A stretch of DNA of 64,000 bases from Vulcanimicrobiota bacterium (GTDB lineage Bacteria > Vulcanimicrobiota > Xenobia > Xenobiales > JADMJV01): positions 64,001 to 128,000 of the forward strand of contig JBFWNU010000005.1 in NCBI GenBank assembly GCA_050250895.1, read 5' to 3'. The notes under the pieces were generated by a model. The model did no database searches and had not been told where the DNA came from. It was given only the letters and a program-made list of their open reading frames with translations. Shown here one piece after another: positions 20,468 to 48,894 of this stretch; position 1 is the first letter of the stretch; each line of letters opens with the position of its first letter. The position numbers and the translations under genes were made by a program.

Positions 20468-21145
20468 CTATCCCTCATCAATGAGTTCCCGAATCATCGA
20501 GTACAGTTCGTCTTCGTTCCAGCCAGAATAGCCCTTGATGTCTACTAGAGCTGGGTTGGCCAACCTTTGAGCGTGTAACTCTTGGAGTCTTTCAACCCTA
20601 CTCAGTCCCTCTGGAAGCTCTTCCTGTCTCTTGCGAACGCTGTCCACAAAGCGATCCATGGTAGCCTTCGAGAGCTTGCTGATCATTAGACTCTCCACGG
20701 CCTCAATAGCTAGACCGGCGTTCTCGATCTCCGCTTTATGGCGCAATAAGACGACCTCGAGGGAATCCAACCAATCTGGGGATGCCAAGACTCTGTCAAC
20801 GTTCCTTAGAAAGTCCGACCGGTCCTCGAACTCTCTCTTCGATGTTTCAGTTCTTAGCCTTCTGCTTGCAGAGAGAACGCTTCTCGCTAGAAGTTTGAGA
20901 GATTCAGGAAAAGCCTCATTTGTGGCTAGTAACTCCGTCCACACAGCGACCTGATCGAATCTCGTGTCGTAATCGCCGGAAGACCAGTATGGGTCAGACG
21001 GTTCGTCTCTAACGATCGCCTCGTAAAGAGTCGATGTGATTACGAGTTCCTCCAATTCTGTCCCGCTCCCGGATTCCGCCATAGCCTGAACGGCTCGGAC
21101 TAACTGCCAGCCAAAAGACTCGTATTGATTCTTGAGGGACCTCAT
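20468..21145 (-). CDS. Putative immunity protein for the RHS C-terminal domain
   Basis: 4-nt overlap with the RHS stop, GAGGAGG SD, visibly lower GC than the flanks; no recognisable domain. Confidence 0.6.
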   Translation of the reverse strand: MRSLKNQYESFGWQLVRAVQAMAESGSGTELEELVITSTLYEAIVRDEPSDPYWSSGDYDTRFDQVAVWTELLATNEAFPESLKLLARSVLSASRRLRTETSKREFEDRSDFLRNVDRVLASPDWLDSLEVVLLRHKAEIENAGLAIEAVESLMISKLSKATMDRFVDSVRKRQEELPEGLSRVERLQELHAQRLANPALVDIKGYSGWNEDELYSMIRELIDEG

Positions 21146-24100
21146 GGGTTATTCCTCCTCGGTATCTTGATCCCGAGTCGACAGAGAGTATACAAGAAGT
21201 CGCAGGCCGCAAGTTTTGTGTCAGTATTTTCAGAAAGCATCCAAGCGCCCTCAGAGACTGCCGCTATCTCGGCGGCCAACTCGAGATTGTTTTTCAGTAT
21301 GGCTTCCGCGATCGTTGTAGTTCCCCAATGAAGTAGGGAGTCCCAAACAGCCTGTTCCTTTCGTACCTTTCTCAAGCACCTTTGATATTGCATAGAACAG
21401 TCATCTTGGCATTCCAACCCCGCTGGATCCACCCAGTTTATCGGGTTCCCACCCACATAGGCATACAGGTTCAACCCACCCTCGTAGCCTATCGGGTCCC
21501 GCGAAATGAACCTGCCCAAGGTGGCGTCGTAAACTCGGTAGGTGGCCAGGTCCAGACCCGTCAGTTCGTGGTGGAAGAGGCCGGCGTAGCCGAAATCGCT
21601 GTCGGCATCTCCGGCTACCTTGGTCCGCTCGCCGTAGATGGTGTAGCGGTAGTCGGCTACGGTGTTGCCGTTCTCGTCGAGCAGCGAGCGGACCGAGCCG
21701 AGGTGGTCGGTGGTGTAGAAAAGCTTGGCGCCGTTGTCGATGACGCCCTGGCCGAAGTAGCGCTTCGTGATCGGGAAGTCTTGCACCAGACCATCGCGCT
21801 CGCACACGATGGCCCCACCGAGCCACCAGTATAGCTTCTTGGACACAATCACGCCGTCTTCGATCTCGGTGATGACACTGCGACGGTCAAGGCCGTCATA
21901 CTCGAACTCGCTTCGGTGGGTGCCCATCACGATGGCCGTGACCCGGCCCTGACCGTCCCACTCGAACAGTTTGCCGTCGAGCTCGGTGGTCTGCCCTTTG
22001 GCGTCATAGACCTTGGTTCCGGGGGAGACCACCTGGTTGTTGGAGTTATAGCCGAAGTCGGTGGTGACGCCGGCCACCGTCATGCTGGTGATGTTGCCGG
22101 CATCGTCGAAGTCGTAGCTGGCATAGGGCGTCTGGTTGAGGTTGACGCCCACCAACCGGCTGAGGTTGTCGTAGCTATAATTGTAAGTTTCCGTGGTTAC
22201 CGTGCCGGTTCCTCCGCCGCCGGTGTCATCATCGTCCCAGCCGCTGTCCCATTCCCAGAGACAGCTGAGGAACTCGTAGATCGCTCGGGAAGCCCGCCTC
22301 CGTTCCCGGCGAAGTTCGCACTCGAGGTCCGATTCGTCTTCGTCGTGGTCGCAGTCGTCGTGACCGTGGCCATGGTTGTTGTTGGCGTTGTTTCCGTGAC
22401 CGTGGTTCCCGTTGTGGCTGTTCCCGTGGTGACCGTTGTTGCCCTGGTGGTTGTTAGCCTGGTGACCATTGTTGCCGTGATGGCCGTTATTACCATTGTG
22501 GCCACTATTTCCGTGGTGGCCACTGGCACCATGGTGACCGTTGTGACCGTTATTCCCGTGGTGACCATCCCCATGGTGACCGTTGCTGCCATGATGGCCA
22601 TTGCCGTGGTGACCGTGTCCGTGGCCGTGGCCATCACACTGGTCGTCGTCATCGTCATCGTCATCGTCGTCGTCATCCCCGCCCCCGCCTCCGGGGTCGG
22701 CGGCGCCGCCCAGGCTCTGGACCATCTGGGTGATCCGGCCGATGGGATCGTAGGTGTAGTCGAACTGGCTCAACACGGCGCCGTTGCGCAGGTTCATGAT
22801 TTGCAGCAGGCGCCGGTCGCCCTGGTTGGTGTCGTAGCTATAAGCCATATTGGGCCCGACCGTCGAGGTCACGCCGGTGACCTGGCCGGTGGTGCCGAGA
22901 TAGGTCATCTGGAACGTGTCCAGAGCATTGGTGGTGGAAGTCGGCCGCCAGAGCTGGTCATAGATCACGCTCTCGGGGCTGCCGTTGATGATGCTGCCGC
23001 TCGGCCGCCCGGCCACGTCATAGGAGAACGCGGCCAGGTCGCCATAGGGGCCGCTGATCGAGGCGACCTGGTTGGCCCCCAGGCTACCCACCGGCACATA
23101 GTTGAGAGTGGTGGTTCCCTGGCCGTCGGTCATGCTCAACGGGCGCGACAGGAAAGAGTCCTGAGTGAAGGTTACCGCTGGCGTGCCGTCGCTGTAGGTC
23201 ACGCTCTTGAGCATGTTGTCCAGGAAGTAGTCGTAGGTTTTGGTGTGCCCCAGCGCGTCGGTGACGGTGCTCAGCCGACCGCAGCAGGGCTGGTAGCTCA
23301 CCGTCTGGGTGGCGCCATCGGGATAAGTCTTGCTCAGCAGGCGCTGTTGGATATCGTATTGGAAGGTGGTGGCGTTGCCGTTGGGGTCGGTCAGCCCGGA
23401 AGGGGCGTTCTCGAGACCGTAGGCCAGCGAGGTGATGCCGCCGTTGGGATCGATGACCGAGGTGACGCGCTGCAAGGCGTCGTGATGGATCTGGGTGATG
23501 CGGCCGATGCGGTCCTGCGTCCGGAACAGATCCAGGCGGTCATAGGTCAGGCTGTCGGTGGTGCCGTCAGGATACTGGACGCTGACGGGACGATCGAAGT
23601 CGTCATACTGGACCTCGACGGTATAGCCTTCGGAATCGGTGGCCGAGGCCACTCGCTCGGCCGAGTCGTAAGCAAATGTGGTCTGCTTGCCCAGTGGTTG
23701 GGTGATCGAAGCCAGGTTGCCCGAACTGGTGTAGGTGTAGTTCGTGGTCTCGCCCAGCGGGTTGGTGGCGGAGAGCATCAGGCCGCGGGCGTCATAAGAG
23801 AACGAACTGCTCTGCCCGGCAGCGTCGGTGAGGTTGGTGATGTTGTGGTTGGCATCGTAGGATGCGGTGAAGAGCGTCTGCCCACCCACCGAGGCACTGG
23901 TGAGATCGATGCCGTTGGCGTCATAGGTGTAATCGTAGACGCGGCCCTGAGGGTCGATCATCTGGGTGACATTGCCCCGGGTGTTGTATTGGTAGCGCGT
24001 GACCTGGGAACTGCCGTCCCCCAGGACCTGGCCCACATGGGTGACGTTGGAGTCACCGGCGAAGATCGTGTTGTACATCGGGTGGCCGTTGGGCGGGTAG

Positions 24101-26265
24101 AGATACCAGACCCTGTTCTGCAGAGGTTTCTTGAAGCTCTCCAGGACGCGCGCCCTGGCCTCGCCGCCTGGCGTCTCGATATGCATGAAGTGATAGATGG
24201 TGGCCTTGGTGTAGTCGAGAGTGGCGTCGAGCTGCTGCGGCTCCCAGAAGAACGTATTGCGGTAGGCCAGATTGGTGTTGCGAACCGGCATGCCTTGAGG
24301 GGTCTGGCTCTCTGAGTTGTAGGGCTCGCGGCCTTCGTTGGACTCGTAGCGGTAGCGACGACCGGCGGGGTCGGTGATCTCGAGGACCCGGTCATACGGC
24401 ACCGGGATGAGATGGCGATTGTGGTTGATATCGGCGTAGAGGAAGGTGGTCGTGCCGTAAGGCGTGGTCATGGAGTTGATGAAGTCGTTCTCTTCATACT
24501 GAAAACTCGAAGTCAGGCCGATCACGTCGGTGATCGATTCGAGGTGGCCATCGGCGCTATAAGTAAAGGTCGCTGATCGCCCGAACGGGTCGGTGACCCG
24601 CGTGATTTTGAGCGGGTCTTCGGCCAGCTCATAGGCGATGGTCATCGGACGGTCGACGGCGTCGCGAATCTCGCTCAGGCGCCCCTGGTCGTCGTAGGTC
24701 AAGCGGGTGGCGTTGCCTTGAGCCGTGATGCGAGCCGTCAGGTGATAGCGCTCGCCGATCTGATGAAAATACTCGTCGCGGGAACCATCGGGATACTCCA
24801 GGCTAAAGCCGCTGCCGGTGTAGCTGAGGAAGGCGTCCGTATAGGCACCTTTGTCCGAGATGGTTGCTCCGTTGGTGAAGGTGTAGCCGTCGGTCCCGCC
24901 GCCGGTCTTGTAGATCAGCGCCTTATTGTCGGTGGCGCGGGTGTCGGTCACAAAGCTGGTCCAGTTGCTGGTCCATTTGGGCCCCAGGTTGGAGTAATCG
25001 AAGATGGCCGGCTGACTGGCTTCGCGGTGGCCGTAGGTCACTCGGAAGGGCACCGCAAAAGCGCCCGGGCTCAGACCCACCGGCGTGTCGGATAGACGCA
25101 GTCCAATCAGCATCGTGTGGGCACTCCATTGGGCCATACCCGACATTGCGGTGGTGAGCCCCGGCCCTCCACCCGACGCGGGGGCCGGACAGGTCGGAAA
25201 GGCGTCCTCGTCGCCCGAGGCTTCATTCTCTCTACGGTCTCGAGTCACCCCGCGACCCCACACCGTCTTCGCCTCACTCGCCGGCACCTTACGCCAGCCC
25301 TTCGGCAGAGACCCGGCCGGGACCAGGAAGTATCCACTCGCCTCTTCTTCCAGGACCTGAGGCTCCATCTTGATTTGCGAGCGCCCCAGGCCAGCCGTCT
25401 CGTCGCCCACCGGATAGATTCCGTTCTGGGGCTCGAGCAGAGCGGCGAAGTGTCCTACTTTCCAGTGTACGACGGCCGGAGTGAGGATAGCGCTTCCCGG
25501 CTGGCGAAAGGCCATCTGATAGTCCATGCCCAGCCGCTCCGAGAGGCCGTGAACCTGGGCCAGCGAGGTGCCGCGAGTGGTCGAAGGAAGGCTTTTGATA
25601 ATCCTGGCCGTCTCGACATCCCAGGCGTTAGTACATTGGCGGATGCGGCGCAGGGCGGCCGGTCCACACAAGAAGGCGACCTCAGGTCTTTGCTTCATGG
25701 TCGTCAGCGCTTCGTGAGCATCCACGACCCACTCGGTGGCGGCGCCTTGCAGCGAGCGGCCTTTGGCCTGCTCGAGCAGCGGCTCCAATTCTTCCACCCT
25801 ACCGATATGGGAGAGCGTCATCGCGTATTCACCCAGAGCCCTATCGGCCAGGGGCTTGATGCGCGGGTCTTGGACGGGCTCGAGTTCTTTCCAGGCCTGG
25901 CTCAGGCAAGCCAGGGCGCGGGTGAACCTTCCTGAGTCGCGATAGTAGGTGCCCAGATTGAGCCGCACCGACGGAGCCCACGGGTCTTGGGGATGTTCTC
26001 TGAGGAAAGCCTCGAGGAGATCGACCTTTTGGGACTTCGTACGAGCGTCGGAGCGATACTGCTCGAGCACCTGAGCCAGGCCTCGGTCGTCGGCACCTGG
26101 CTTGATGGGCACGAAAGGCTCGGGGAAATCCCCTCGGAGCATGGCCAGTCGGACTTGCGGCGGACTGGCGGGAGGACTGTTCGTGGCAGTGGGGGGACCC
26201 AGACTCGAGCACCCTCTGAAAATCACGAGCAGAGCAAGGAAAACCTGAAGCCTACCCACCGTCAT
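21142..26265 (-). CDS. RHS/YD-repeat protein with signal peptide, TPR-like and C39-like peptidase N-terminus, His-rich insert and short Cys-rich C-terminal domain
   Basis: YD repeats, DHLGS, GRFISRDPIG...NLYAYVGGNPINWVDPAGL; CGPAAL...VHWKVGHF. Confidence 0.9.
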   Translation of the reverse strand: MTVGRLQVFLALLVIFRGCSSLGPPTATNSPPASPPQVRLAMLRGDFPEPFVPIKPGADDRGLAQVLEQYRSDARTKSQKVDLLEAFLREHPQDPWAPSVRLNLGTYYRDSGRFTRALACLSQAWKELEPVQDPRIKPLADRALGEYAMTLSHIGRVEELEPLLEQAKGRSLQGAATEWVVDAHEALTTMKQRPEVAFLCGPAALRRIRQCTNAWDVETARIIKSLPSTTRGTSLAQVHGLSERLGMDYQMAFRQPGSAILTPAVVHWKVGHFAALLEPQNGIYPVGDETAGLGRSQIKMEPQVLEEEASGYFLVPAGSLPKGWRKVPASEAKTVWGRGVTRDRRENEASGDEDAFPTCPAPASGGGPGLTTAMSGMAQWSAHTMLIGLRLSDTPVGLSPGAFAVPFRVTYGHREASQPAIFDYSNLGPKWTSNWTSFVTDTRATDNKALIYKTGGGTDGYTFTNGATISDKGAYTDAFLSYTGSGFSLEYPDGSRDEYFHQIGERYHLTARITAQGNATRLTYDDQGRLSEIRDAVDRPMTIAYELAEDPLKITRVTDPFGRSATFTYSADGHLESITDVIGLTSSFQYEENDFINSMTTPYGTTTFLYADINHNRHLIPVPYDRVLEITDPAGRRYRYESNEGREPYNSESQTPQGMPVRNTNLAYRNTFFWEPQQLDATLDYTKATIYHFMHIETPGGEARARVLESFKKPLQNRVWYLYPPNGHPMYNTIFAGDSNVTHVGQVLGDGSSQVTRYQYNTRGNVTQMIDPQGRVYDYTYDANGIDLTSASVGGQTLFTASYDANHNITNLTDAAGQSSSFSYDARGLMLSATNPLGETTNYTYTSSGNLASITQPLGKQTTFAYDSAERVASATDSEGYTVEVQYDDFDRPVSVQYPDGTTDSLTYDRLDLFRTQDRIGRITQIHHDALQRVTSVIDPNGGITSLAYGLENAPSGLTDPNGNATTFQYDIQQRLLSKTYPDGATQTVSYQPCCGRLSTVTDALGHTKTYDYFLDNMLKSVTYSDGTPAVTFTQDSFLSRPLSMTDGQGTTTLNYVPVGSLGANQVASISGPYGDLAAFSYDVAGRPSGSIINGSPESVIYDQLWRPTSTTNALDTFQMTYLGTTGQVTGVTSTVGPNMAYSYDTNQGDRRLLQIMNLRNGAVLSQFDYTYDPIGRITQMVQSLGGAADPGGGGGDDDDDDDDDDDDQCDGHGHGHGHHGNGHHGSNGHHGDGHHGNNGHNGHHGASGHHGNSGHNGNNGHHGNNGHQANNHQGNNGHHGNSHNGNHGHGNNANNNHGHGHDDCDHDEDESDLECELRRERRRASRAIYEFLSCLWEWDSGWDDDDTGGGGTGTVTTETYNYSYDNLSRLVGVNLNQTPYASYDFDDAGNITSMTVAGVTTDFGYNSNNQVVSPGTKVYDAKGQTTELDGKLFEWDGQGRVTAIVMGTHRSEFEYDGLDRRSVITEIEDGVIVSKKLYWWLGGAIVCERDGLVQDFPITKRYFGQGVIDNGAKLFYTTDHLGSVRSLLDENGNTVADYRYTIYGERTKVAGDADSDFGYAGLFHHELTGLDLATYRVYDATLGRFISRDPIGYEGGLNLYAYVGGNPINWVDPAGLECQDDCSMQYQRCLRKVRKEQAVWDSLLHWGTTTIAEAILKNNLELAAEIAAVSEGAWMLSENTDTKLAACDFLYTLCRLGIKIPRRNNP
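22355..22680 (-). repeat. Low-complexity His/Gly/Asn repeats plus poly-Asp inside the RHS gene
   Basis: DDDDDDDDDDD...GHGHGHGHHGNGHHGSNGHHGDGHHGNNGHNGHHG... Confidence 0.95.
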
Positions 26266-27128: not shown

Positions 27129-27623
27129 ATGTTTGGAAAACCGCCGAAGCAACCCCAGCAACTCAGCATCGAGATCCCGACTGCCAAAAGCAAGCCCAAG
27201 GGGCAGGCCGAGCTACGGGCTCGCCGTTTCGTGCTGGAAGACGACGACGGGTCGGTGCGGGCCCAGTTGCAGAGTGCCGGCAACGGAGCCGTGGCCCTCA
27301 CCTTTCACGACACGGGGGGTAAGTTGGGAGTGATTGTCGGGCTAGACCCCAAGCAGGCCCCGACGCTCGCTCTTTTGCACGAGGGCAAAAAGAAGGTGGC
27401 GGTCGAGCTGGATCGAGCGAGCGGCCAGCCCAGCCTGACCCTCGAGGGCCCAGCTGACTCGAAGGTGGTGGTGGGCTTTGGCGAGCAACACCAGGCTGGG
27501 GTGACCATCCACGATCAGGCCGGTCGGCTGCGACTGCGCATCTCGGTGGCGCCGGACGGCAGCACCGAGGTCGCCCTCTATGACAACAAAGGCTACGTGC
27601 GCGAGTCGCTCAAGCGCGCCTAG
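27129..27623 (+). CDS. Hypothetical protein with LxDxxGxxR beta repeats
   Basis: RFVLEDDDGSVRAQL, LTFHDTGGK, TIHDQAGRLR, ALYDNKG; the upstream ORF extension runs through repeat DNA. Confidence 0.6.
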   Translation: MFGKPPKQPQQLSIEIPTAKSKPKGQAELRARRFVLEDDDGSVRAQLQSAGNGAVALTFHDTGGKLGVIVGLDPKQAPTLALLHEGKKKVAVELDRASGQPSLTLEGPADSKVVVGFGEQHQAGVTIHDQAGRLRLRISVAPDGSTEVALYDNKGYVRESLKRA

Positions 27624-28399
27624 TTGGCGGGAAAAAAGGAGCGACGGTACTGGCTGGTCTCGGGGCGGGACCTGAGCGAGACCGAGCCAACCCGCAACGA
27701 GCGTTCCAGATTCGGGGTCGAGGACGCTCGCAGGTCGACAACCACTTCACTCCCCGTGCGAGTCACCTCGAAATAGAGTAACCGGGTGGCCACCACTTCG
27801 ACGCTCTCGAGCCCCGCCTCGCCATTCATCGCGGAGATGTCCAGACCGTCGGGTCGAGTCAAATAGGGCGTGATGTCGGTGAGTATCTGCTCCTGGCTGG
27901 CCTCGGGGTCGGTGGTGGGATCGGTCGGCACGCCAGAATCGATGACTTTTCGCAGCAAGATCTTATGGGGACAGAAGTCATCTAGCCCGGCGCTGCCGCC
28001 CTGGCAATCGTAGCCATAAAGCTGTTGATGGCGCTGAGGGACCACCAGATAGTATAGGATGTTGCGCTGCCAGAACGGGTTTCCATCGAGGTCGTGGGCG
28101 AACTCACCGGTCAGGGGATCGATGGCTGACAGAAACCAGAGTGCCTGGCCGTCGGCGGCGCCTCCGGCCAGACTGGCCGGACCGTTGGCCAGATTGATGG
28201 TGGACGCCCCGGCTAGCCCTAGATCGGCCTCCAGCCTGCGGCTGGCCGAAGAGAGGCTCAGGGCCACCGTCTGTCCTCCCGAGCGGTGGCGCCAGTGCTC
28301 CATGCCGCGGGTCATCAGGAGCAGGGTCATGATGGCCAGGATCGAGAACAGTCCGACGGCGGTCAATAGCTCAGGTAGACTGAAGCCCCGCTGAGTCAT
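27620..28399 (-). CDS. Type IV minor pilin (PilW-like)
   Basis: QRG|FSLPELLTAVGLFSILAI; shares FLSA...G.P.WQ motif with 6035-6643. Confidence 0.85.
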   Translation of the reverse strand: MTQRGFSLPELLTAVGLFSILAIMTLLLMTRGMEHWRHRSGGQTVALSLSSASRRLEADLGLAGASTINLANGPASLAGGAADGQALWFLSAIDPLTGEFAHDLDGNPFWQRNILYYLVVPQRHQQLYGYDCQGGSAGLDDFCPHKILLRKVIDSGVPTDPTTDPEASQEQILTDITPYLTRPDGLDISAMNGEAGLESVEVVATRLLYFEVTRTGSEVVVDLRASSTPNLERSLRVGSVSLRSRPETSQYRRSFFPAN

Positions 28400-28842
28400 T
28401 CTGGTTCGGTCACCAGTCGACTGGCCTGGGTGCTGAGACGGCCGAAGCCCTGGCGTTCACCACCCAGCCACTTCACCTCGACCCGGACTTGCTTGACCCG
28501 GTTGCTGCCGTCGGCCCCGGTGAGCACGGTTTGGGTATACACTGCGAATTCGAAGGTGGTTGTTCCCGAGGTCACCGAGCCGCTAGAGAAGGCTGGTCCC
28601 GAAGAGGGAAAATCCTGACTCCAGAAGCGAGTCAGCTCGCCGGGGGGGTCGTCCAAAGTGGCCGCCCGCACCGCCCGGCTGAGTTCGCCATCGGCCACCG
28701 CAGCCGCCGCGGCCAGTTGGCTGGCCTTGCTGCCCGCCTGGAGAGAGGCGATCCAAAGGCTGAACATGGCTAGCGCGCCCAGGCTGAGCAGGGCCAGCGA
28801 AATGAGAATTTCGATCAGGCTAAAGGCCCGCGCCCGATTCAC
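28396..28842 (-). CDS. Type IV minor pilin (PilV-like)
   Basis: RARA|FSLIEILISLALLSLG; VKQVRVEVKW. Confidence 0.85.
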   Translation of the reverse strand: MNRARAFSLIEILISLALLSLGALAMFSLWIASLQAGSKASQLAAAAAVADGELSRAVRAATLDDPPGELTRFWSQDFPSSGPAFSSGSVTSGTTTFEFAVYTQTVLTGADGSNRVKQVRVEVKWLGGERQGFGRLSTQASRLVTEPE

Positions 28843-28862: not shown

Positions 28863-30548
28863 CTACAACTGTTGCAACAACTGGAGCATTGGAGCCAGGG
28901 CGGCCAGGGCGACGAAGCCCGCCACCACCCCTCCTCCCGCCAGGAGAATGGGCTCGAGCAAACGGGCCAGCGCCAGCAAGGCGTCCTGAGCGTCCTCCTC
29001 CAGGCTGGTCGAGGCCCGCATGAGCAACTCCGACAGGTTGCCGGTGGTCATGCCCACCTCGATGATCGAGATCACCATGGGCGGCAGGACCTCGAGACTG
29101 CCGAACGCGGCTGTTACGTCTTCGCCCAGGCCAACCGCCTGGCGCACCCGCCGCAGCTGCCCCTCGACCGCCAGGTTGCCGGCCACTCGCTCGCCCAGAT
29201 CGAGCGAGGCCGTCAGCGGCAGCCCGACGTCGAGAGTCAGACCCATCACATAGACCACCCTGGCCGAGATCATCTTGGCCACCAGGCGACCGACGAGGGG
29301 CATCCGCAAGATAGCCTCGTGCACTCTTCGCCGGATGGCTCGCGAGCGCTGATAGGTCTGGCGAGCAGTGGCCGCCACCATTCCCAGCAGCAGGATCGCT
29401 CCGCTCACCACCAGGGGGTTGCGGGCCAGCCCGCCAAAGGCGACCAGGACGCGGGTGGGCCAGGGCAGTTGGTCGGCCCCGAAGAGGTTAGCGTCCTGCG
29501 AGCAGATGAAGGTGGCGAAGAGCAGGGCCAGCAGCAAGAGCGAGCAGGCCAGGATCACCGGATAGGTCAGCGCGGCGATCACCATTTTCTTCAGTCGCAG
29601 TGCTTGCTCCGAGGCGTCGGCCAGACGGGACAGGGCATAGGTGAGCCGACCCGTCTCTTCGCCCGCCGCCACCAATCCCAGGGCTAACGGGCCGAAGATA
29701 TCGGGGCGCCGGCGCATCGATTGGCTCAAGGAAAAGCCGCTGCTGACTCCCTGGTGGAGCGTCTCCACCAGGCGGTCCAGGTCAGCCTCGCCCGAGTCGC
29801 CCAGCGACTCGAAAGCCCGACTCAGGTTGACTCCGGCCGCGAGCAGGGTGGCCAGGCGGCGATAGAAAGGGGCCATGATCTCGAGAGACAACGAACGTCT
29901 CAGCTGTTCGGGCACCGGTTCGTAATGGGTCCCATAGTCTCGCGAGCGGCCCACCACCTCGACGTTGGTCTGGCCAAACTGAAGGCGTTGCCCGGGAAAG
30001 ACCGGCTCCCAGCTTGAGCCGACCGCTCGCCCGTCACGGCGGGTGCCGTTGGCCGAGCCCAGGTCCTGAACCCAGAGCAGGCCTCCCTTCCAGCGCACCT
30101 CGGCGTGGTTGCGACTGACCCCGCCTCCCACCAGGCAGAGCAGATTGGCCGGGTCGCGACCTATGCCTATGGTGAAGCCGTCTTCCGGCACGCTCACCCG
30201 CTGGCCGTTGGCGGCGACCAATTCGGGGGGCCGAGCGGATGGATCGGGCAAAAAGAAGCTAGCCTCGAGGCTGTTGCCAAAGCGGACCAGAACGCCCGCC
30301 GGGACCTCGGTCCACTGGCCGGGGTTCAGCTTCTTGTCGCTGCAATAGGTGCCGTTGCGAGAGTCGAGATCCCGCATCCAAAGGGTCCCGTCGCGCATCG
30401 TCAACTCGGCGTGGCGACGGCTGATTTGATCCGAGTCAAAGCGCAAACCAGCCTCGAAATCCCGGCCCACGATCAGGTTGGTGGTCGTCTCGGGAATTTC
30501 GAACACCACGCCGCCGGGTAAGGTAAGTCGTGGCCAGCTCGAACTCAC
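28863..30548 (-). CDS. Tandem FHA-FHA domains fused to a PilC/GspF inner-membrane platform protein
   Basis: Two GR...SRxHA...DLxSxNGT FHA motifs; T2SSF motifs RLATLLAAGV, GEETGRL, ALTYP, LLEPILL. Confidence 0.88.
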   Translation of the reverse strand: MSSSWPRLTLPGGVVFEIPETTTNLIVGRDFEAGLRFDSDQISRRHAELTMRDGTLWMRDLDSRNGTYCSDKKLNPGQWTEVPAGVLVRFGNSLEASFFLPDPSARPPELVAANGQRVSVPEDGFTIGIGRDPANLLCLVGGGVSRNHAEVRWKGGLLWVQDLGSANGTRRDGRAVGSSWEPVFPGQRLQFGQTNVEVVGRSRDYGTHYEPVPEQLRRSLSLEIMAPFYRRLATLLAAGVNLSRAFESLGDSGEADLDRLVETLHQGVSSGFSLSQSMRRRPDIFGPLALGLVAAGEETGRLTYALSRLADASEQALRLKKMVIAALTYPVILACSLLLLALLFATFICSQDANLFGADQLPWPTRVLVAFGGLARNPLVVSGAILLLGMVAATARQTYQRSRAIRRRVHEAILRMPLVGRLVAKMISARVVYVMGLTLDVGLPLTASLDLGERVAGNLAVEGQLRRVRQAVGLGEDVTAAFGSLEVLPPMVISIIEVGMTTGNLSELLMRASTSLEEDAQDALLALARLLEPILLAGGGVVAGFVALAALAPMLQLLQQL

Positions 30549-41349: not shown

Positions 41350-42795
41350 CTAAAAGGGGACGGGGGCCTCCAGGCAGAGCCAGCGCTGCCGGTGGGGATG
41401 GCGCAGCTCCAGCTTCTGAGCGTGCAGACGCAGACGGCCGTCGGGGGTCCCGTAGAGCCGATCGCCGCGAACGGGGCAGCCGAGTTCGAAGGCGGCGTGG
41501 ACGCGAATCTGGTGACTGCGCCCGGTCACCGGAGAGAACTCGACCCGCCGCCCGTCCAGGCAGCGATAGAGGGTCTGACTCGGCCGACCGGCGGGGTCGG
41601 GGCGATAGCAGCCTGGTCGGTTGGGATCGCTGGCGATAGGTTGCTCGAGCAGCCCCTCAGGCTGGTTGGGCCGGGCCGTCAGTTCGGCCACGTAGGTCTT
41701 GCGTGCGTTCCGCTCCTGGAACTGCCGCTGCAATCCGGCCTGGGCCGGGCGTGTGCGGGCGAAGAGCACCACCCCCGAGGTCTCGAGATCGAGGCGATGC
41801 ACCGGCAACAGGTCGGGCCCCAGCCGGGTCAGCACCGAGTCCTGGTTCCAACCCGCCTGGCCCGGCACGGTCAAGACGCCGGGTGGCTTATCCACCGCCA
41901 GCAGATGCTCGTCGTCATAGAGCACCCGGATGGGCCGGGCCCCGGCCAACAAAGGGCCGAGTAGCGGCTGACAACGGGCAGGGCAGGCCGTGTAAAACTG
42001 CCCGGGCTGGCGACCGGGCCTGGCCGGACCCCACCAGAACTCGGCCAATCCCAGCGGCTCGAGCCTTTGTAGGGCCGCCTGATAGAGCAGCTTGGGAGCA
42101 CAGCAGTCGCCGGTGCCGGTGGGGGTGCCGCGGGGAAAGAGCGAGGCCAGCGACCACGGCAGGTCGGCAAAGAGCGCCTGGTCGAACTGCTGGTGGATTT
42201 CTGTCTGTAATTGGCGCGATAGTTGGCGGCGCTCGCGTCGCAACCTTTGCTCGTGCTGGATCAGATCGTGGAGGGGAGCCAGTTGGGCCTGGCGGACGCG
42301 TTGGAAATCGCGTTTCTCGGCGCTTTGCCGACGGCTCTGCTGGTCCAGGTCCGGTCTCGGCCCGGCCTGACGGGCCTGATGCCGTTCCTGGCGGTCGGCG
42401 CGGTGCCGCGCCATCAGCGCGGCCTGTTGTTGGTCGAGAGCAGTTTTCAACCGTTCGAACTCAAGCTTTCTCTCGTTCAATTCGGCCAGTTCAACCCGGA
42501 TCGCTTCGAGACGGGGCAGGGTGGCCCGCTCCAGCGGCGTCTCGGCTGGATCGAAGATGGGATCGACCCAACCCGGCAGACGACGCTGGCCCTGCCAGCA
42601 CCCCGAGAAGGCGCGCAGCACCACCCTCTGGCCCTGCGGGTCTCGGGCCAACAGCACCCCGAACATCTTGCCCTCGTCACTTTCCAGCCGGCCCATCAGC
42701 TGGCGGGCCGCCTCGATGGCTTCGGGGCTACGCGCCAGGCGCAGCCGCCGCCCTGTGATCGGGCAATCCCCCTCGTAGAAGTAGTCAGCGTCCAC
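41350..42795 (-). CDS. RluA-family pseudouridine synthase with N-terminal extension
   Basis: GKMFGVL, GDCCAPKLL, VDKPPG, VHRLDLETSG, TGRSHQIRVH, GDRLYG, LHA. Confidence 0.92.
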   Translation of the reverse strand: MDADYFYEGDCPITGRRLRLARSPEAIEAARQLMGRLESDEGKMFGVLLARDPQGQRVVLRAFSGCWQGQRRLPGWVDPIFDPAETPLERATLPRLEAIRVELAELNERKLEFERLKTALDQQQAALMARHRADRQERHQARQAGPRPDLDQQSRRQSAEKRDFQRVRQAQLAPLHDLIQHEQRLRRERRQLSRQLQTEIHQQFDQALFADLPWSLASLFPRGTPTGTGDCCAPKLLYQAALQRLEPLGLAEFWWGPARPGRQPGQFYTACPARCQPLLGPLLAGARPIRVLYDDEHLLAVDKPPGVLTVPGQAGWNQDSVLTRLGPDLLPVHRLDLETSGVVLFARTRPAQAGLQRQFQERNARKTYVAELTARPNQPEGLLEQPIASDPNRPGCYRPDPAGRPSQTLYRCLDGRRVEFSPVTGRSHQIRVHAAFELGCPVRGDRLYGTPDGRLRLHAQKLELRHPHRQRWLCLEAPVPF

Positions 42796-42882
42796 CTGGC
42801 TGCCTTCGGCGGGGGGGCGGAATATCCCCAGGAGTCCTCGCGACGGTCCAGAACAATCCGCCCTCTGGGAGTAACACGAATC

Positions 42883-45800
42883 ATGCGACGTCTGTTGATA
42901 TTATTGGCCCTCTGCCTTTTGTGCGGTTGCCTGACCCCGTCAGAAAGGGCCCTCGGCTCGACCCCTGAGGCCGAGCGAACACCCGGCTTCGAGTTCACCC
43001 TGGCCGACGGGTCCGAGGCCGGCAAGCCCCCCGAGCAGCTGCCGGTGCCCAAGACCACGCCGATGACGGCCGAGGCCACCAAAGCCCTCCTGGATCGTTT
43101 GCCCAAGTTGCCCCAGTTGGCGGGTGACAAGACGCCTTTTGCCAAGCGGGAAGACTCCAAACCGCTGCCCAAGACCGGAAAGACGGTCGAAGAGTCTTTC
43201 CCCCCCCCTCCCCGCGACCTGCCGCCGGTGGAAGTGACCAGTGGCCCGCTGGAGGTGGTTCGTTTTTCGCCCGAGGGCGCCGTCGAACTGGCTCCCTTCC
43301 TGAGTGTCACCTTCAACCAGCCCATGGTCGCCGTGAGTTCTCAGAGCGAAGCCTCGGCCGTGCATCCCGTCAAGCTCACCCCCGAGCCGCCGGGAGAGTG
43401 GCGCTGGGTGGGCAGCAAGACCCTGCTTTTTAAGCCCAAGCCGCGTTTCCCCATGGCTACCAAATACCAGGTCGAGATTCCCAGCGGTACCGTCAGTCAG
43501 GCCGGGCAGAAACTGGCGGCCGCCAAGTCCTTCACCTTCACCACCCCGGCTCCCCGGCTGCTGCAGAAATATCCCGAAGTCGGCCCGACCGTCCGTGATC
43601 CCCTGATCTTTCTCGGTTTCGACCAGGCCATCAGCCCTGAGAAGATGAGCGGGCATATCACCCTCAAGGCCGACGGCAAAACGTTCCCGTTCCGCCTGGC
43701 GACGGCCGCCGCTCGGGCCGAAGACACTCAGATCACCAGTCTGATCGATCAGGCCGAAGAGGGTCGCTGGCTGGTCATTCAGCCCAGCCAGCCCCTGCCT
43801 CTGGCCAGCACCATCACGGTTACGGTCGAGGCCGGAGCCCCCTCCGAGGAGGGGCCCTCCACCACCCCTGCCCCTCAATCCTTCACCTTCTCCACCTATT
43901 CGCCGTTGAAGGTCGTCGATCAGAATTGCGACCCCGGCGACCATTGCCCGCCGCTTTCCCCCTGGTGGGTCGAGTGCAACAACCCCCTCGACGAGAAGAA
44001 CTTCATGCCGGCCATGGTGACGGTCAGTCCCGAGGTGCCCGGCTTCAAGGTCGAAGCCCAGGGCAGCTACCTGCGCATGCGTGGGCGCACCAAAGGCAAC
44101 ACCACCTACACGGTGACCATCCACAAGCGGCTGGGTGACAGCTTCGGCCAGTTTCTGGGCGAGCCTCAGGAGCTAAAGTTCCATGTGGGACGGGCCAACA
44201 AAATGCTGCGCTCGACCACCCAGGGTATGACCGTGCTCGACCCCTACGCCAAGCCCAGCTTCCCGATCTACACGGTCAACATCAAAGAGGTGCGAGTGCT
44301 GGCCTATGCGCTCACCCCTCAGGATTGGCTGGCCTTCGGCAAATACTATCACGGCTGGCGCAACGAACCGCCGCCGCCGATTCCCGGGCGCCAGGTGCTC
44401 AACACCACCGTCCAGATCAAGGCCGACCCTGACGAGTTGGCAGAGACCAACCTCGATCTCAGCCAGGCTTTGCCCGACAAGTTCGGCCAGCTGGCGGTCA
44501 TCGTCGAAGATACCGACATGCCACCCAAGCGTTACGAACAGCGGCGTCTGGTGGCCTGGGTCCAGGCCACCAACATCGGCCTCGACGCCATGCTCGACGG
44601 TCAAGAACTGGTGGCCCTCACCACCGATCTTCGCGATGGAAAGCCCCTTCAGGGCGTCGAGGTCTCGATTTCAGAGTCGACGGTCAAAGGCCAGTCCGGC
44701 GACAACGGCCTGACCACGCTGGACCTTCCCGGCGAGCGCTCCAAGCAGACCAGCATGTTGCTGGCTCGCCAGGGCAAGGACCTGGCCATTCTGCCCGAGC
44801 ACGCCTACTTCTACGAGAGCCAGGGCAACTGGCTCAAGCGCACCGACACCGATTCCTTGCTCTGGTATGTGGTCGACGACCGTCAGATGTACCGACCCGG
44901 CGAGAAAGTCAGTGTCAAAGGTTGGATCCGGCGCATGGCCGCCGGCCCCAAGGGCGACCTGGAGGGGCCGCCGACCCAAGCCAAAGAGGTCTCCTACACC
45001 GTCTTCGACTCGCGCAACAATAAAATCGGCGAGGGTAAGGCGGCACTGGCCGCTACCGGAGGCTTCGATTTCAACTTCCAACTGCCGGCCACGCCCAACC
45101 TGGGCTACGCTCGCATTCAGCTCGACACCAGCTCGGGCCTGGGTAACAGTTCGACCAGTCACGGTTTTCAGATTCAAGAGTTTCGGCGCCCCGAGTTCGA
45201 GGTGACCAGCTCGCCCAGCGACGGCCCCCACCTGCTGGGCGGCCAGGCCACCGTCACTGTCCACGCCAACTATTACGCCGGCGGCGGGTTGCCCAACGCC
45301 GAAGTCAACTGGTCGGTGTCGAGTTCGCCGGGCAGCTTCTCGCCCCCCAATCACCCCGAGTTCACTTTCGGTCGCTGGACCCCGTGGTGGGATATGGGGC
45401 CCTGGTGGCGCACCCCCGAAAACCCTTACAACTCGAAGTCGCTTTCCAGTCACACCGACAGTTCGGGAGCCCACACCCTGGAGCTGAAGTTCCAGTCGGT
45501 CTGGCCCCCTCAGCCCATGTCGGTCTCGGCCCAGGCCTCGGTGGAAGACGTCAATCGCCAGTCCTGGGCAACCTCCAGCTCTTTGCTGGTGCACCCCGCC
45601 AAGGTCTACGTCGGTCTCAAGAGCCCGCGCACGTTCGTGCAGCAGGGCGAGAAGTTCGAACTCGAGACCATCGTGGCCGACCTCGACGGCAGGCTGCAGA
45701 CGGGCACGCCCATCTTGCTCGAATTGGTTCGCCTGGAGTGGGCCTATGAAAAGGGCGAGTACATCCAAAAAGAACTCGACCTGCAGACCCAGACCATCAC

Positions 45801-48800
45801 CTCGGCGGCCCAGCCTCAGAGTTTTAGCTTCAAACCGGGCGAAGGCGGCAGCTATCGCCTGACGGCCACCGTCAAAGACGCCGATGGTCGCCTCAACCAG
45901 AGTACCCTTTCTTTGTGGGTAGCCGGCGGCAAGGTGCCCACGAGTCGTTCGGTCGAGCAAGAGCGGATCACCATGATCCCCGACCGTAAGCAGTACGCCC
46001 CCGGTGACACCGCCGAGATTCTCATCCAGGCTCCTTTCGCCGACGCCGAGGGGGTCGTGTCCCTACGTCGCAACGGTCTGCTCAAGAAAGAGCCCATCGT
46101 GCTCAAGGGCACCAGCTATACCCTCAAAGTGCCCATCGAAGAATTCCACACCCCCAACCTCTACGTCCAGGTCGACCTGGTCGGAGCCGCGCAGCGCACC
46201 GGCCCCGACGGCAAGCCACTGGACACCGACATCAAGAGACCAGCTTATGCCACTGGCATGCTCAATCTGTCGGTTCCGCCCCTGGCCCGCAAATTGACGG
46301 TCGAGGTGGCACCGGCCGTCAAGGCCCTCTCGCCGGGTGGAGAGACCCAGCTCCAGTTGACCGTCAAGGATGCCGCCGGCAAACCTGCCCAGAACTGCGA
46401 AGCGGCCGTAGTGGTGGTGGACGAGTCGGTGCTGGCCCTGACCGGATACCGCCTGCCCGACCCCCTCAACACGTTCTATCCTGGCCGGGGAGCCGGCGTC
46501 AGCGACTACCACTCGCGTGGCTATGTGGCTCTCGCTTCGGCCGACCTGCTCGAGAACGCCAATGAGGGAGTCGCCCCGGGCATGGCCGTCGACCTCGAGG
46601 GCGGCGAGGCCGATGAACTCTACGCTGACGCGGCCGTAGCCGGCCGCGCCATGTCGGCGGAAGAGAGGCCCGCTCCTTCGGCCGCGCCGCGCCCCGAGGC
46701 CAAACAGGCCTTGCGTCGCGACAAGACCTCCAACAGTGCTCAGCCCGCCCCCGATGAGCCTATCGCGATGCGGACCAATTTCGACGCTCTGGCTCTGTTT
46801 GCGGCGGAGGTGCCCACCAACGCTCAGGGTCAGGCTACGGTCAAGATCAAAGTGCCTGACAACCTGACCCGCTATCGCATCATGGCGGTGGCCGTGGCCG
46901 GCAACCGCGAGTTCGGCCAGGGCGAGTCGACCTTGACCGCCCGGCTGCCCCTGATGGTGCGCCAGTCGCCGCCGCGCTTTCTCAACTTTGGTGACCACTG
47001 CGAACTGCCGGTGGTTTTGCAGAATCAGACCGACGCTCCGATGGAGGTCCAGGTGGCCATGCGGGCGACCAACGCCAAGCTCGACGACGCCCTGGGTCGC
47101 CAGGTCGTAGTGCCCGCCAATAACCGCGTCGAAGTCCGCTTCCCGGTGGCTGCCGACCAGGCCGGCAAGGCTCGCTTCCAGGTGGGAGCTCAGTCCCAGA
47201 GCGGCTCGGACGCCTCGCAGTTCGAGTTGCCGGTGTGGACGCCGGCCACCAGCGAGGCCTTCGCCACCTATGGCGAGATCGACCAGGGAGCCATCGCCCA
47301 GCCGGTCAAGATGCCGGGCGAGGTGTGGCCCCAGTTTGGCGGGCTCGAGGTGACCACCAGTTCGACTGCGGTGGGAGCCCTCACTGACGCCGTCCTTTAC
47401 CTGGTGGCCTATCCCTTCGAGTGCTCCGAGCAGGTGGCCTCACGCGTCATGTCCATCGCCGCCCTGCGCGATGTCTTGAGCGCCTTCAAGGCCGAGGGCC
47501 TGCCGCCCGAGAAAGAGCTGCTGGCGGCTGTCGGTCGCGACATCGAGAAGCTCAAGAACATGCAGAACTACGACGGCGGCTGGGACTACTGGATCCGCGG
47601 ACGCGAGTCCGACCCTTACCTGAGCATCCATGTGGGTCACGCCCTGATCCGGGCCAAGCAGAAGAAGTTCGCCGTGCCCGAGGATGCCCTCGAGCGCAAT
47701 CGCCAGTTCCTGGTCGATATCCAATCGCACATTCCTTACTACTACAGCCAGGAGGCCAAGTGGGCCCTGCGGGCCTACGCCCTCTACGTTCGCAACCTGG
47801 CTGGCGACAACGATCCGGCCACGGCCAGGGCACTGCTGGCCGAGGTTGGCCCCATTGACAAAGTCGGCCTCGAGACGCTGGGCTGGCTGTTGCCGGTGCT
47901 CTCGAAAGACCCGGCCTCGGCCGCTCAGGTGAAGGCTATCCGCCTGCACTTCAACAATCGTGTCTCCGAGACGGCAGCCACGGCCCAGTTCGCCACCAGC
48001 TACGGCGATTCGAACTATCTGCTGCTCTACTCGGATCGCCGGGTGGACGCGGTGCTGCTCGAGGCGCTCATTCTGGACAGCCCTAAGAGCGATATCATCC
48101 CCAAGATCGTGCGCGGTCTGCTCGACCATCGCAGCCAGGGCCACTGGGGCAACACCCAGGAGAACTGCTGGGTGCTGCTAGCCCTCGACCGCTACTTCAA
48201 CACCTACGAGAAGGTCGAGCCCGACTTCGTGGCCCGGGTCTGGCTGGGGCAGCAGTATGCTGGCGAGCACGCTTTCAAAGGCCGCACCACCGAAGAGTCG
48301 CTCATCAAGGTGCCCATGAAGTTGCTCTCCGAGAAAGCCCAGAACCTGGTCTTGCAGAAAGACGGCAAGGGACGCCTCTACTATCGCATCGGCATGCGCT
48401 ATGCGCCCAAGAGCCTCAAGCTCGAGCCCGCCGACTACGGCTTCGTGGTCGAGCGCCGCTACGAGGCGGTCGACGACAACCGCGACGTGACTCGCGATGC
48501 CGACGGAGTCTGGCATGTCAAGGCTGGAGCCAAGGTGCGGGTGCGCTTGACGATGGTGGCCCCCGAACGCCGCTATCACGTGGCCCTGGTCGACCCGCTG
48601 CCGGCCGGCCTCGAGGCCATGAACCCGGCTCTGGCTGTCACCGGCGAGGTGCCTCGCGAGCCCAACGCCAGCCCTTACTGGTGGTGGGGAGGCACCTGGT
48701 ACGAGCACCAGAACCTGCGCGACGAGCGCACCGAGGCCTTCAGCTCGCTGGTCTGGCCCGGCGTCTACGAATACAACTATGTGGCCCGGGCCACCACTCC

Positions 48801-48894
48801 GGGCAACTTTGTGGTGCCCCCGACCAAAGCCGAGGAGATGTACCATCCCGAGACCTTCGGCCGCTGCGGCACCGATCGCCTCGTAGTCGACTAG
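42883..48894 (+). CDS. Bacterial alpha-2-macroglobulin lipoprotein with Ig-like N-terminal domains
   Basis: Lipobox LCGC; DRQMYRPGE, EFRRPEFEV, PDNLTRYR, thioester motif YPFECSEQ, WGNTQEN, EEMYHPETFGR. Confidence 0.92.
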   Translation: MRRLLILLALCLLCGCLTPSERALGSTPEAERTPGFEFTLADGSEAGKPPEQLPVPKTTPMTAEATKALLDRLPKLPQLAGDKTPFAKREDSKPLPKTGKTVEESFPPPPRDLPPVEVTSGPLEVVRFSPEGAVELAPFLSVTFNQPMVAVSSQSEASAVHPVKLTPEPPGEWRWVGSKTLLFKPKPRFPMATKYQVEIPSGTVSQAGQKLAAAKSFTFTTPAPRLLQKYPEVGPTVRDPLIFLGFDQAISPEKMSGHITLKADGKTFPFRLATAAARAEDTQITSLIDQAEEGRWLVIQPSQPLPLASTITVTVEAGAPSEEGPSTTPAPQSFTFSTYSPLKVVDQNCDPGDHCPPLSPWWVECNNPLDEKNFMPAMVTVSPEVPGFKVEAQGSYLRMRGRTKGNTTYTVTIHKRLGDSFGQFLGEPQELKFHVGRANKMLRSTTQGMTVLDPYAKPSFPIYTVNIKEVRVLAYALTPQDWLAFGKYYHGWRNEPPPPIPGRQVLNTTVQIKADPDELAETNLDLSQALPDKFGQLAVIVEDTDMPPKRYEQRRLVAWVQATNIGLDAMLDGQELVALTTDLRDGKPLQGVEVSISESTVKGQSGDNGLTTLDLPGERSKQTSMLLARQGKDLAILPEHAYFYESQGNWLKRTDTDSLLWYVVDDRQMYRPGEKVSVKGWIRRMAAGPKGDLEGPPTQAKEVSYTVFDSRNNKIGEGKAALAATGGFDFNFQLPATPNLGYARIQLDTSSGLGNSSTSHGFQIQEFRRPEFEVTSSPSDGPHLLGGQATVTVHANYYAGGGLPNAEVNWSVSSSPGSFSPPNHPEFTFGRWTPWWDMGPWWRTPENPYNSKSLSSHTDSSGAHTLELKFQSVWPPQPMSVSAQASVEDVNRQSWATSSSLLVHPAKVYVGLKSPRTFVQQGEKFELETIVADLDGRLQTGTPILLELVRLEWAYEKGEYIQKELDLQTQTITSAAQPQSFSFKPGEGGSYRLTATVKDADGRLNQSTLSLWVAGGKVPTSRSVEQERITMIPDRKQYAPGDTAEILIQAPFADAEGVVSLRRNGLLKKEPIVLKGTSYTLKVPIEEFHTPNLYVQVDLVGAAQRTGPDGKPLDTDIKRPAYATGMLNLSVPPLARKLTVEVAPAVKALSPGGETQLQLTVKDAAGKPAQNCEAAVVVVDESVLALTGYRLPDPLNTFYPGRGAGVSDYHSRGYVALASADLLENANEGVAPGMAVDLEGGEADELYADAAVAGRAMSAEERPAPSAAPRPEAKQALRRDKTSNSAQPAPDEPIAMRTNFDALALFAAEVPTNAQGQATVKIKVPDNLTRYRIMAVAVAGNREFGQGESTLTARLPLMVRQSPPRFLNFGDHCELPVVLQNQTDAPMEVQVAMRATNAKLDDALGRQVVVPANNRVEVRFPVAADQAGKARFQVGAQSQSGSDASQFELPVWTPATSEAFATYGEIDQGAIAQPVKMPGEVWPQFGGLEVTTSSTAVGALTDAVLYLVAYPFECSEQVASRVMSIAALRDVLSAFKAEGLPPEKELLAAVGRDIEKLKNMQNYDGGWDYWIRGRESDPYLSIHVGHALIRAKQKKFAVPEDALERNRQFLVDIQSHIPYYYSQEAKWALRAYALYVRNLAGDNDPATARALLAEVGPIDKVGLETLGWLLPVLSKDPASAAQVKAIRLHFNNRVSETAATAQFATSYGDSNYLLLYSDRRVDAVLLEALILDSPKSDIIPKIVRGLLDHRSQGHWGNTQENCWVLLALDRYFNTYEKVEPDFVARVWLGQQYAGEHAFKGRTTEESLIKVPMKLLSEKAQNLVLQKDGKGRLYYRIGMRYAPKSLKLEPADYGFVVERRYEAVDDNRDVTRDADGVWHVKAGAKVRVRLTMVAPERRYHVALVDPLPAGLEAMNPALAVTGEVPREPNASPYWWWGGTWYEHQNLRDERTEAFSSLVWPGVYEYNYVARATTPGNFVVPPTKAEEMYHPETFGRCGTDRLVVD

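Follow-up and report, generated by a model that had tools for sequence, protein, structure and literature searches.

Can the inner-membrane platform of a type IV filament machine carry its own reader of protein phosphorylation? The question is raised by one gene in a 64,000-nucleotide stretch of a Vulcanimicrobiota genome (the window, C5:64001-128000 of the 9.5-Mb, 17-contig genome G000). The gene encodes a 561-residue protein, P0001, in which two FHA domains precede a platform core of the GspF/PilC type. The initial annotation had proposed a dedicated platform paralog, recruited or switched by threonine phosphorylation, that assembles one specific tip complex. Here, we follow the gene from its domains to its homologs, its neighbours and its genome, and weigh what the FHA domains may do there.

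Architecture of the FHA-FHA platform

P0001 is a single open reading frame (ORF) with a GTG start. The Pfam FHA model (PF00498) matches it in two stretches with 90.4 bits, compared with a cut-off of 20.7; in the scan of the genome the two matches reach 52.2 and 46.9 bits individually, so that both domains pass the cut-off. The T2SSF model (PF00482) matches two tandem stretches with 136.2 bits (cut-off 25.2). The annotated arrangement of two complete FHA domains in frame with T2SSF is thus borne out by Pfam and by the translation, in which the residues of the phosphothreonine-binding signature can be read twice: as Gly28-Arg29, Ser43-Arg-Arg-His46 and Asn65-Gly66-Thr67 in FHA1, and as Gly130-Arg131, Ser145-Arg-Asn-His148 and Asn167-Gly168-Thr169 in FHA2. 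An 18-row FHA alignment (A4) shows no variation at Gly130, Arg131, Ser145, His148, Ser165, Asn167 and Thr169. With phmmer, FHA2 matches the FHA domain of Mycobacterium tuberculosis FhaA (PDB entry 3po8) with an E value of 7.5e-06 and with the GR, SRxH and NGT residues in register; weaker matches to solved structures are those to GarA/OdhI, Bdellovibrio DgcB and Sulfolobus ArnA. A weak NCBIfam match to the FHA domain of TagH is also present (E value 2.5e-08).

An AlphaFold2 model of residues 1-215, built from an 18-row alignment, has a mean pLDDT (predicted local distance difference test) score of 82 and consists of two β-sandwiches followed by a disordered tail. FHA1 is modelled with block pLDDT values of 84-94 across residues 21-90. 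A Foldseek search with this model returns 134 PDB matches at E values of 0.001 or lower, and the top entries among the matches listed are FHA domains. The predicted model superposes on 3poa with a TM-score of 0.86 on the target and a root-mean-square deviation of 1.4 Å over 95 columns. Judged by their residues and their predicted fold, both FHA domains look competent for phosphothreonine binding.

The remainder of the protein is predicted to be all-helical in the full-length AlphaFold2 model (block pLDDT 86-98). It covers the NCBIfam GspF profile only at positions 54-399 of 401, and P0001 therefore belongs to the short type of platform, without the N-domain that is normally present. The initial description of a full two-lobed T2SSF protein is correct as to the two repeats and has to be corrected as to completeness, the N-domain of GspF being absent. 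With 204 bits for the GspF model (equivalog cut-off 424) and 174 and 141 bits for the PilC models (cut-off 700), P0001 falls under every NCBIfam equivalog cut-off for GspF/PilC (models TIGR02120, NF052607 and NF052606). Tyr329-Pro330 and Glu532-Pro533 lie in columns that are at least 90% conserved among 83 sequences. In the available excerpts of the work on Klebsiella PulF, a Tyr-Pro pair in the first transmembrane helix (TM1) and a Glu-Pro pair in the third (TM3) are described as conserved channel residues (PMC10790770), and we take Tyr329-Pro330 (TM1) and Glu532-Pro533 (TM3) to be their counterparts. P0001 is a genuine GspF/PilC-type inner-membrane platform, the peripheral N-domain of which is replaced by a cytoplasmic tandem of FHA domains.

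Table 1. Features of the FHA-FHA platform gene and its neighbours (window positions), and related platforms elsewhere in the genome (contig positions) or in the sister genus g2 (genomes).
Feature	Position	Strand	Evidence
Whole gene P0001, FHA-FHA-linker-T2SSF platform, 561 residues	28863..30548	-	ORF list, translation, Pfam
FHA domain 1 (about residues 5-99)	30252..30536	-	Pfam stretch 26-91, AlphaFold2 β-sandwich, Foldseek
FHA domain 2 (about residues 105-200)	29949..30236	-	Pfam, phmmer to FhaA, Foldseek
Flexible linker from FHA2 to platform core, 22 residues (201-222)	29883..29948	-	pLDDT <50 for 201-212
Short-type GspF/PilC platform core (residues 223-561): Cyto1, TM1, TM2, Cyto2, TM3	28863..29882	-	T2SSF, two repeats
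Minor pilin 1, 148 residues, PilV/GspI/ComGE-like N-terminus	28396..28842	-	Pfam N_methyl, 28.5 bits
Minor pilin 2, 259 residues, prepilin motif G/FSLPE	27620..28399	-	Pfam N_methyl, NCBIfam IV_pilin_GFxxxE
P0291, PilX/GspK-like large pilin-like protein, 632 residues	30610..32508	+	Weak PilX_N, N-terminal hydrophobic helix
Kinase gene followed by GAF-platform gene, four pairs	C1:1545758-1548129; C11:26131-28598; C10:28432-30841; C1:2412529-2414935		
Further GAF-platforms	C1:1686310; C1:2721477 (just below cut-off)		
Full-length FHA-platform matches in g2	G002 (x2), G006, G008 (x2), G010, G012		

Reality and spread of the fusion

The protein cluster of P0001 has three members: the 561-residue form, a 548-residue form with another called start and P0289, a protein of 547 residues from another assembly. 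P0289 is 94% identical to P0001 over 547 residues, and the alignment contains no gaps, linker included. A second, non-identical genome thus carries the fusion without interruption, and a misassembly can be dismissed; the junction near position 29930, for which read support had been recommended, falls in the linker that P0289 spans. Mismatches between the two proteins amount to six of 86 positions in FHA1 (7%) and eight of 100 in FHA2 (8%), compared with six of 22 in the linker (27%) and 15 of 339 in the platform (4.4%). The low values for FHA1 and FHA2 relative to the linker indicate that the FHA domains are under constraint, as the platform is. A 145-residue partial protein, P0123, named by NCBI 'FHA domain-containing protein, partial [Candidatus Eremiobacteraeota bacterium]', is 81% identical to residues 58-202 of P0001 and retains the key residues. 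The GR, SxxH and NG residues are kept in both P0289 and P0123.

Relatives were sought by a word-indexed search of 5.8 billion proteins and by an exhaustive phmmer search of 1.84 billion representatives. When the whole of P0001 is used as the word-index query, PF00498 and PF00482 occur together in its own cluster only, among the 120 of 170 matches listed; with the FHA region as the query they do so in one of 23 matches. The word index under-reports, as a profile query missed three of its own four rows (P0125, P0152 and P0249). From the best 150 of the 39,231 phmmer matches to P0001, 36 were scanned with Pfam, mostly those with room for a further domain. Three of these 36 metagenomic representatives combine a single FHA domain with T2SSF (again P0125, P0152 and P0249), one combines GAF with T2SSF (P0146) and one has four cNMP-binding domains with T2SSF (P0239); the other long proteins scanned have N-terminal extensions in which Pfam finds no match. 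A contig search with P0001 gave 90 pattern matches, none of them a relative, and one with P0125 gave only a 23%-identical Verrucomicrobiota PilC-like locus.

Across a phylum sample of 401 genomes, searched with a profile of four FHA-platforms and scored for the four top candidates of each genome, full-length matches are confined to G000 and five of the six genomes of a sister genus, g2 (Table 1); an unpublished genome of the sample (G232) has a T2SSF-only match. The FHA domain is confirmed by Pfam in the two g2 proteins that were scanned (25.7 and 20.7 bits). The initial annotation had named a singleton as what would refute it; with P0289, and with the single-FHA platform fusions of the sister genus and of the metagenomes, the fusion is not one. 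The g2 platforms are orphans that have unrelated neighbours and no pilin genes nearby. They come in two conserved paralog types (L030-L034, L026), one of which always adjoins a gene pair that is putatively, from the N-termini, S-adenosylmethionine-decarboxylase-like and ATP-grasp-like.

In a quick IQ-TREE tree of 71 platform cores with SH-aLRT support only, the sisters of P0001 and P0289 are P0003 and P0124, two short proteins without FHA. P0125 is placed elsewhere, as is a group consisting of the g2 proteins, P0152 and P0249, and the FHA label requires at least four changes on this tree. Repeated gain of FHA is the simpler reading of this tree, and a single gain followed by several losses may also account for it. 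The FHA domains of the other fusion classes are not detected by those of P0001 at E values below 1e-3. The G-R, S..H and N residues are retained in the FHA domains of g2, P0152 and P0249, and P0125 has a glutamine in place of the histidine. Orthology between P0001 and the g2 single-FHA platforms was considered and rejected on the grounds of a different clade, different neighbours and FHA domains that are not detectably similar. Tandem duplication of one FHA domain after the fusion is not supported, as FHA1 and FHA2 match each other with 36-37 bits and other FHA domains of the genome with 40-46 bits. The capture of a ready-made tandem module, such as that of a 628-residue double-FHA protein encoded at C4:303489, is possible, if weakly supported.

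A domain shuffle of recent date and near-neutral effect, amid the churn of platform paralogs and with little or no function, could also leave such a gene behind. The number of paralogs in the genome (about 76) speaks for this, and so does the distribution of the double-FHA form, which among the matches listed is limited to the P0001 cluster and the 81% identical fragment and which was not found in the 40 relatives searched. A by-product of this kind would not be expected to show 7-8% mismatch in FHA as opposed to 27% in the linker between 94% identical homologs with every key residue retained, nor a platform core that keeps the family columns conserved at 90% or more. Neither does it sit well with a compact operon (one 4-nucleotide overlap and one 20-nucleotide gap) or with FHA-platform fusions at four or more places on the tree. 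We consider it quite improbable.

The pilin cassette and its genomic setting

As had been annotated, the platform gene leads two minor pilin genes, and both of these carry prepilin N-terminal motifs. Pilin 1 starts 20 nucleotides past the platform stop codon and has N-terminal NCBIfam matches to PilV, ComGE and GspI, all below cut-off. Pilin 2 overlaps it by 4 nucleotides and is 44% identical to a pilin on contig C24 of the same-genus genome G001. At 27620 the minus-strand operon of the platform and its two pilins comes to an end, and the next ORF is convergent and on the plus strand. On the other side, the PilX-like gene (P0291) is divergent, as described, across a gap of 61 nucleotides and not about 70; its PilX_N match is weak (E value 0.0069, below the Pfam cut-off), and its product is a candidate tip subunit. 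Platform, two pilins and the facing PilX/GspK-like gene form a self-contained cassette of a platform with its tip pilins. Pfam scans of the large ORFs of the window detect no ATPase, secretin, peptidase or kinase, and there is no T2SSE match within 6 kb of the P0001 gene. A promoter and terminator scan gave nothing above shuffled sequences.

In G000, five sets of genes are homologous to the trio made up of the PilX-like gene and the two pilin genes. A platform gene adjoins two of the five, namely the P0001 locus and C4:184558, and the platform at C4:184558 is the closest paralog of P0001 in its own genome (36% identity). In G001 a homologous trio of PilX-like gene, pilin 1 and pilin 2 lies on one strand with no platform (L062, G001:C24:227-6286), preceded by a Ser/Thr kinase gene and TPR-like ORFs; here the PilX-like gene is broken by an assembly gap. 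Locus-level synteny with G001 was tried and abandoned, the two species being too distant (about 69% DNA identity in conserved genes).

The gene of P0292 (32604-35741, plus strand; 1045 residues) is the next one downstream of the PilX-like gene. The N-terminus of P0292 is rich in Ser and Thr, its acidic repeats contain motifs of the type DNPGGGGTDGKISRxDL, and at the C-terminus there is a P-loop domain with a match to Zeta_toxin (E value 1e-13); a signal peptide is not evident. An RHS-repeat protein of 1707 residues (21142-26265, minus strand) is encoded 1.3 kb beyond the pilin operon; it carries an Asp run and a low-complexity insert rich in His, Gly and Asn, and a short ORF (20468-21145) lies behind it. 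Further away, a 2223-residue bacterial α2-macroglobulin-like protein (42223-48894, plus strand) is followed by a DUF6939 gene.

These neighbours bring to mind a role in cargo or effector recruitment, in which the FHA domains would capture a phosphorylated cytoplasmic client for delivery. P0292 would be the candidate by its place behind the PilX-like gene, its Ser/Thr-rich N-terminus, its Zeta_toxin match and the lack of an obvious signal peptide, and the RHS protein near the operon could be seen in the same light. Substrates of type II secretion are periplasmic, which argues against a cytoplasmic client, as do the unrelated neighbours of the g2 single-FHA platforms. We regard this role as very unlikely.

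The cassette stands in a genome that is rich in platforms. PF00482 matches G000 at 149 places, and a local profile search yields 78 platform ORFs, two of which are 74-residue fragments at contig ends. This leaves about 76 platform genes, the exact number being uncertain as three ORFs overlap at C1:3609905-3613124. Of the 32 matches to PF00437, nine span nearly the whole profile at E values of 1e-93 or lower and represent PilB-like ATPases. There are two secretin matches and one prepilin peptidase match, each of them on contig C1 and beside both a platform gene and the gene of a PilB-like ATPase. A pilin-like ORF, recognized by a simple prepilin motif, lies within 4 kb of 51 of the 76 platforms and a T2SSE match within 6 kb of nine; 45 platforms, that of P0001 included, have pilins and no ATPase. 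The annotated idea of a platform paralog dedicated to a single tip complex is consistent with the cassette of platform and minor pilins and with these genome counts. Pilin-like ORFs number at least 149 in all. First-look candidate counts suggest that platforms are similarly expanded in families f1 and f2, which have large genomes, and not in the small-genome family f3.

Kinase genes are found near platform genes more often than expected. The genome has 94 Pkinase matches; relative to random placement in 500 shuffles, such matches lie within 300 bp of eight of the 76 platforms (1.9 expected; eight reached in two shuffles), within 3 kb of 16 (5.9 expected; one shuffle) and within 5 kb of 23 (8.5 expected; no shuffle). 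There are 38 FHA matches, and the two of P0001 are the only ones inside a platform gene. Ten further platforms with long N-terminal extensions were scanned, and GAF was found past the cut-off in five and just below it in one. Four of the proteins combining GAF and T2SSF are encoded directly behind a Hanks-type Ser/Thr kinase gene (L050-L053; Table 1). A 1247-residue PilB-type ATPase, P0293 (C10:65319-69062, L054:320-4063), joins MshEN, a kinase-like domain and T2SSE with a long acidic linker. Its kinase-like motifs read HRDLRPDT and EFG instead of the usual HRDLKPxN and DFG, and P0293 is possibly a fusion of a pseudokinase with a motor. In L055 (C1:2041957-2044253) a short platform of 346 residues is followed by a gene for an FHA domain joined to an adenylate/guanylate cyclase, with two kinase genes 4-7 kb past the latter.

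Possible gating and comparison with known systems

As platforms greatly outnumber motors in this genome and its kinase genes cluster at platform genes, we infer that the use of P0001 is coupled to Ser/Thr phosphorylation. With about an even chance of being right, we propose that P0001 is a signal-gated platform paralog that would bind a partner carrying phosphothreonine. The cassette would work with borrowed parts, namely one of the few PilB-type ATPases, a secretin and the genome's only prepilin peptidase. The two FHA domains would bind phosphothreonine on the partner, which may be an autophosphorylated Hanks-type kinase, the ATPase or an alignment protein, and the platform would engage the motor, or be held off it, only while a Ser/Thr kinase pathway is active; either direction of regulation is conceivable. 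In the excerpts of the PulF study, the N-domain lies at the periphery on a flexible linker, trimerisation does not depend on it, and a PulF trimer is modelled against the PulE hexamer (PMC10790770). Because that domain is peripheral, flexibly linked and dispensable, exchanging it for another should spare the core. The FHA-FHA pair on its 22-residue linker should then be placed beside the ATPase and the alignment proteins with the core undisturbed. If P0001 forms a trimer like PulF, six FHA domains might face the ATPase hexamer, which is speculation.

The same domains might serve another purpose and recruit an active Ser/Thr kinase that phosphorylates the platform, the pilins or the ATPase, FHA then being an adaptor and not a switch. 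The FHA domains of mycobacterial FhaA and GarA, which are the closest solved relatives, bind autophosphorylated kinases. Docking of a kinase would also agree with the enrichment of kinase genes at platform genes and with the four pairs of a kinase and a GAF-platform; the lack of a kinase in the locus counts against it, and the observations fit this reading and the proposed gating alike. We hold it to be unlikely.

Several observations weigh against the proposed gating. The nearest Pkinase match to the locus is 35.8 kb away and weak (55 bits), and no PP2C was seen among its scanned ORFs, in which no search was aimed at PP2C. For FHA genes besides that of P0001, no enrichment near platforms is seen (within 3 kb of four of 76; 2.1 expected; 84 of 500 shuffles). 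The annotated switching by threonine phosphorylation thus has the genome-wide enrichment of kinase genes on its side, and lacks both a kinase in the locus and a like enrichment of the other FHA genes. No ortholog of the double-FHA form was found among the 40 relatives searched, including the same-genus G001 (98% completeness); the best matches in these relatives begin at P0001 residue 186 or later and leave the FHA part uncovered. The gene is therefore accessory and young, and conservation across distances this short is a test of little power. The full-length AlphaFold2 model gives the FHA part low confidence owing to a shallow alignment and is silent on contacts or docking between FHA and platform. 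Finally, the FHA folds of YscD type in type III secretion systems act without phosphothreonine.

This last point opens another reading, in which the FHA pair is a phospho-independent scaffold: an adaptor or ring-building module as in YscD/PrgH, acting as a constitutive tether to the ATPase or an alignment protein. The FHA-like family Yop-YscD_cpl does match P0001, more weakly than FHA (48.5 bits, cut-off 33.2), and a constitutive tether would need neither a kinase in the locus nor an enrichment of other FHA genes by platforms. Against it, both domains retain the full GR/SRxH/NGT set, residues that to our knowledge YscD-type domains lack, and the nearest solved relatives are FHA domains that bind phosphothreonine (FhaA, GarA/OdhI and DgcB). 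We therefore rate a scaffold as improbable, on a par with kinase docking.

If phosphothreonine gating holds, its meaning would reach beyond one gene. How a choice is made among several sets of minor pilins is an open question, and platforms are usually viewed as passive; a platform with its own phospho-reader suggests that regulation takes place at the platform and not at the ATPase. It is a tentative idea, and in our estimate a rather doubtful one, that large-genome Eremiobacterota build type IV filaments combinatorially, with few motors, two secretins, one peptidase and at least 45 swappable cassettes among which sensor domains on the platforms (FHA or GAF) choose, a phosphothreonine code specifying the tip. 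Were it true, these domains would read Ser/Thr-kinase or small-molecule signals at the platform, and the double-FHA platform would offer the first example of filament-tip selection by a phosphothreonine code. The genome, with about 76 platforms, two secretins, kinase genes enriched beside platform genes, GAF fusions and a kinase-like ATPase fusion, suggests a modular system of which we found no description in the literature searched. For large-genome marine Eremiobacterota, a predatory lifestyle is suggested in the excerpts available of PMC9259500; the present genome may or may not belong to that family. The fusion by itself is of moderate interest, and of higher interest as an entry to what appears to be a signal-gated, modular use of platforms and tip pilins; should the FHA domains not bind phosphothreonine, it shrinks to an unusual domain shuffle.

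A full-text literature search, judged at the level of abstracts and without supplements, found no published description of an FHA-PilC/GspF fusion. This agrees with the initial statement that control by FHA and kinases is undescribed for a type IV pilus platform, to which must be added that FHA on a Tad ATPase, class III CpaF, is already published (PMC12019362). According to the available parts of the respective sources, Myxococcus KilF and several other proteins of the Kil cluster also bear FHA domains (PMC8460266), FHA genes lie near the tad genes of Bdellovibrio (bioRxiv 10.64898/2026.07.08.737194) and kinase signalling is suggested for the FHA-bearing CpaF and KilF (PMC12019362, PMC8460266). 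Control of type IV filament machines by phospho-readers is thus not a new idea; an FHA domain on the platform is what is undescribed in the literature searched.

With Klebsiella PulF, as far as it is described in the excerpts (PMC10790770), P0001 has in common the two T2SSF repeats, a predicted helical core and the Tyr-Pro and Glu-Pro pairs; it differs in that tandem FHA domains stand in the place of the N-domain and that no ATPase is adjacent. With class III CpaF and KilF, again going by partial sources, it shares the order of an N-terminal FHA part, a flexible region and a core component of a filament machine. Those proteins have a single FHA domain on a cytoplasmic ATPase (T2SSE) of the Tad (type IVc) system, whereas P0001 has two on the membrane platform (T2SSF).

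In the type VI secretion pathway of PpkA, PppA and Fha1, and in TagH, an FHA reader would likewise couple a Hanks-type kinase to the assembly of a nanomachine. Fha1 exists as a soluble protein of its own, and its gene stands together with those of its kinase and phosphatase, whereas the reader of P0001 is covalently part of the machine and no kinase is present in the locus. By sequence and fold, the solved FHA domains nearest to those of P0001 come from FhaA (Rv0020c), GarA/OdhI and Bdellovibrio DgcB, and their phosphothreonine-binding residues align with those of P0001; they regulate cell-wall synthesis and metabolic or cyclic di-GMP enzymes, and are not fused to a filament platform. P0125, P0152, P0249 and the g2 proteins have the same order of FHA, linker and short platform as P0001, with one FHA domain where P0001 has two.

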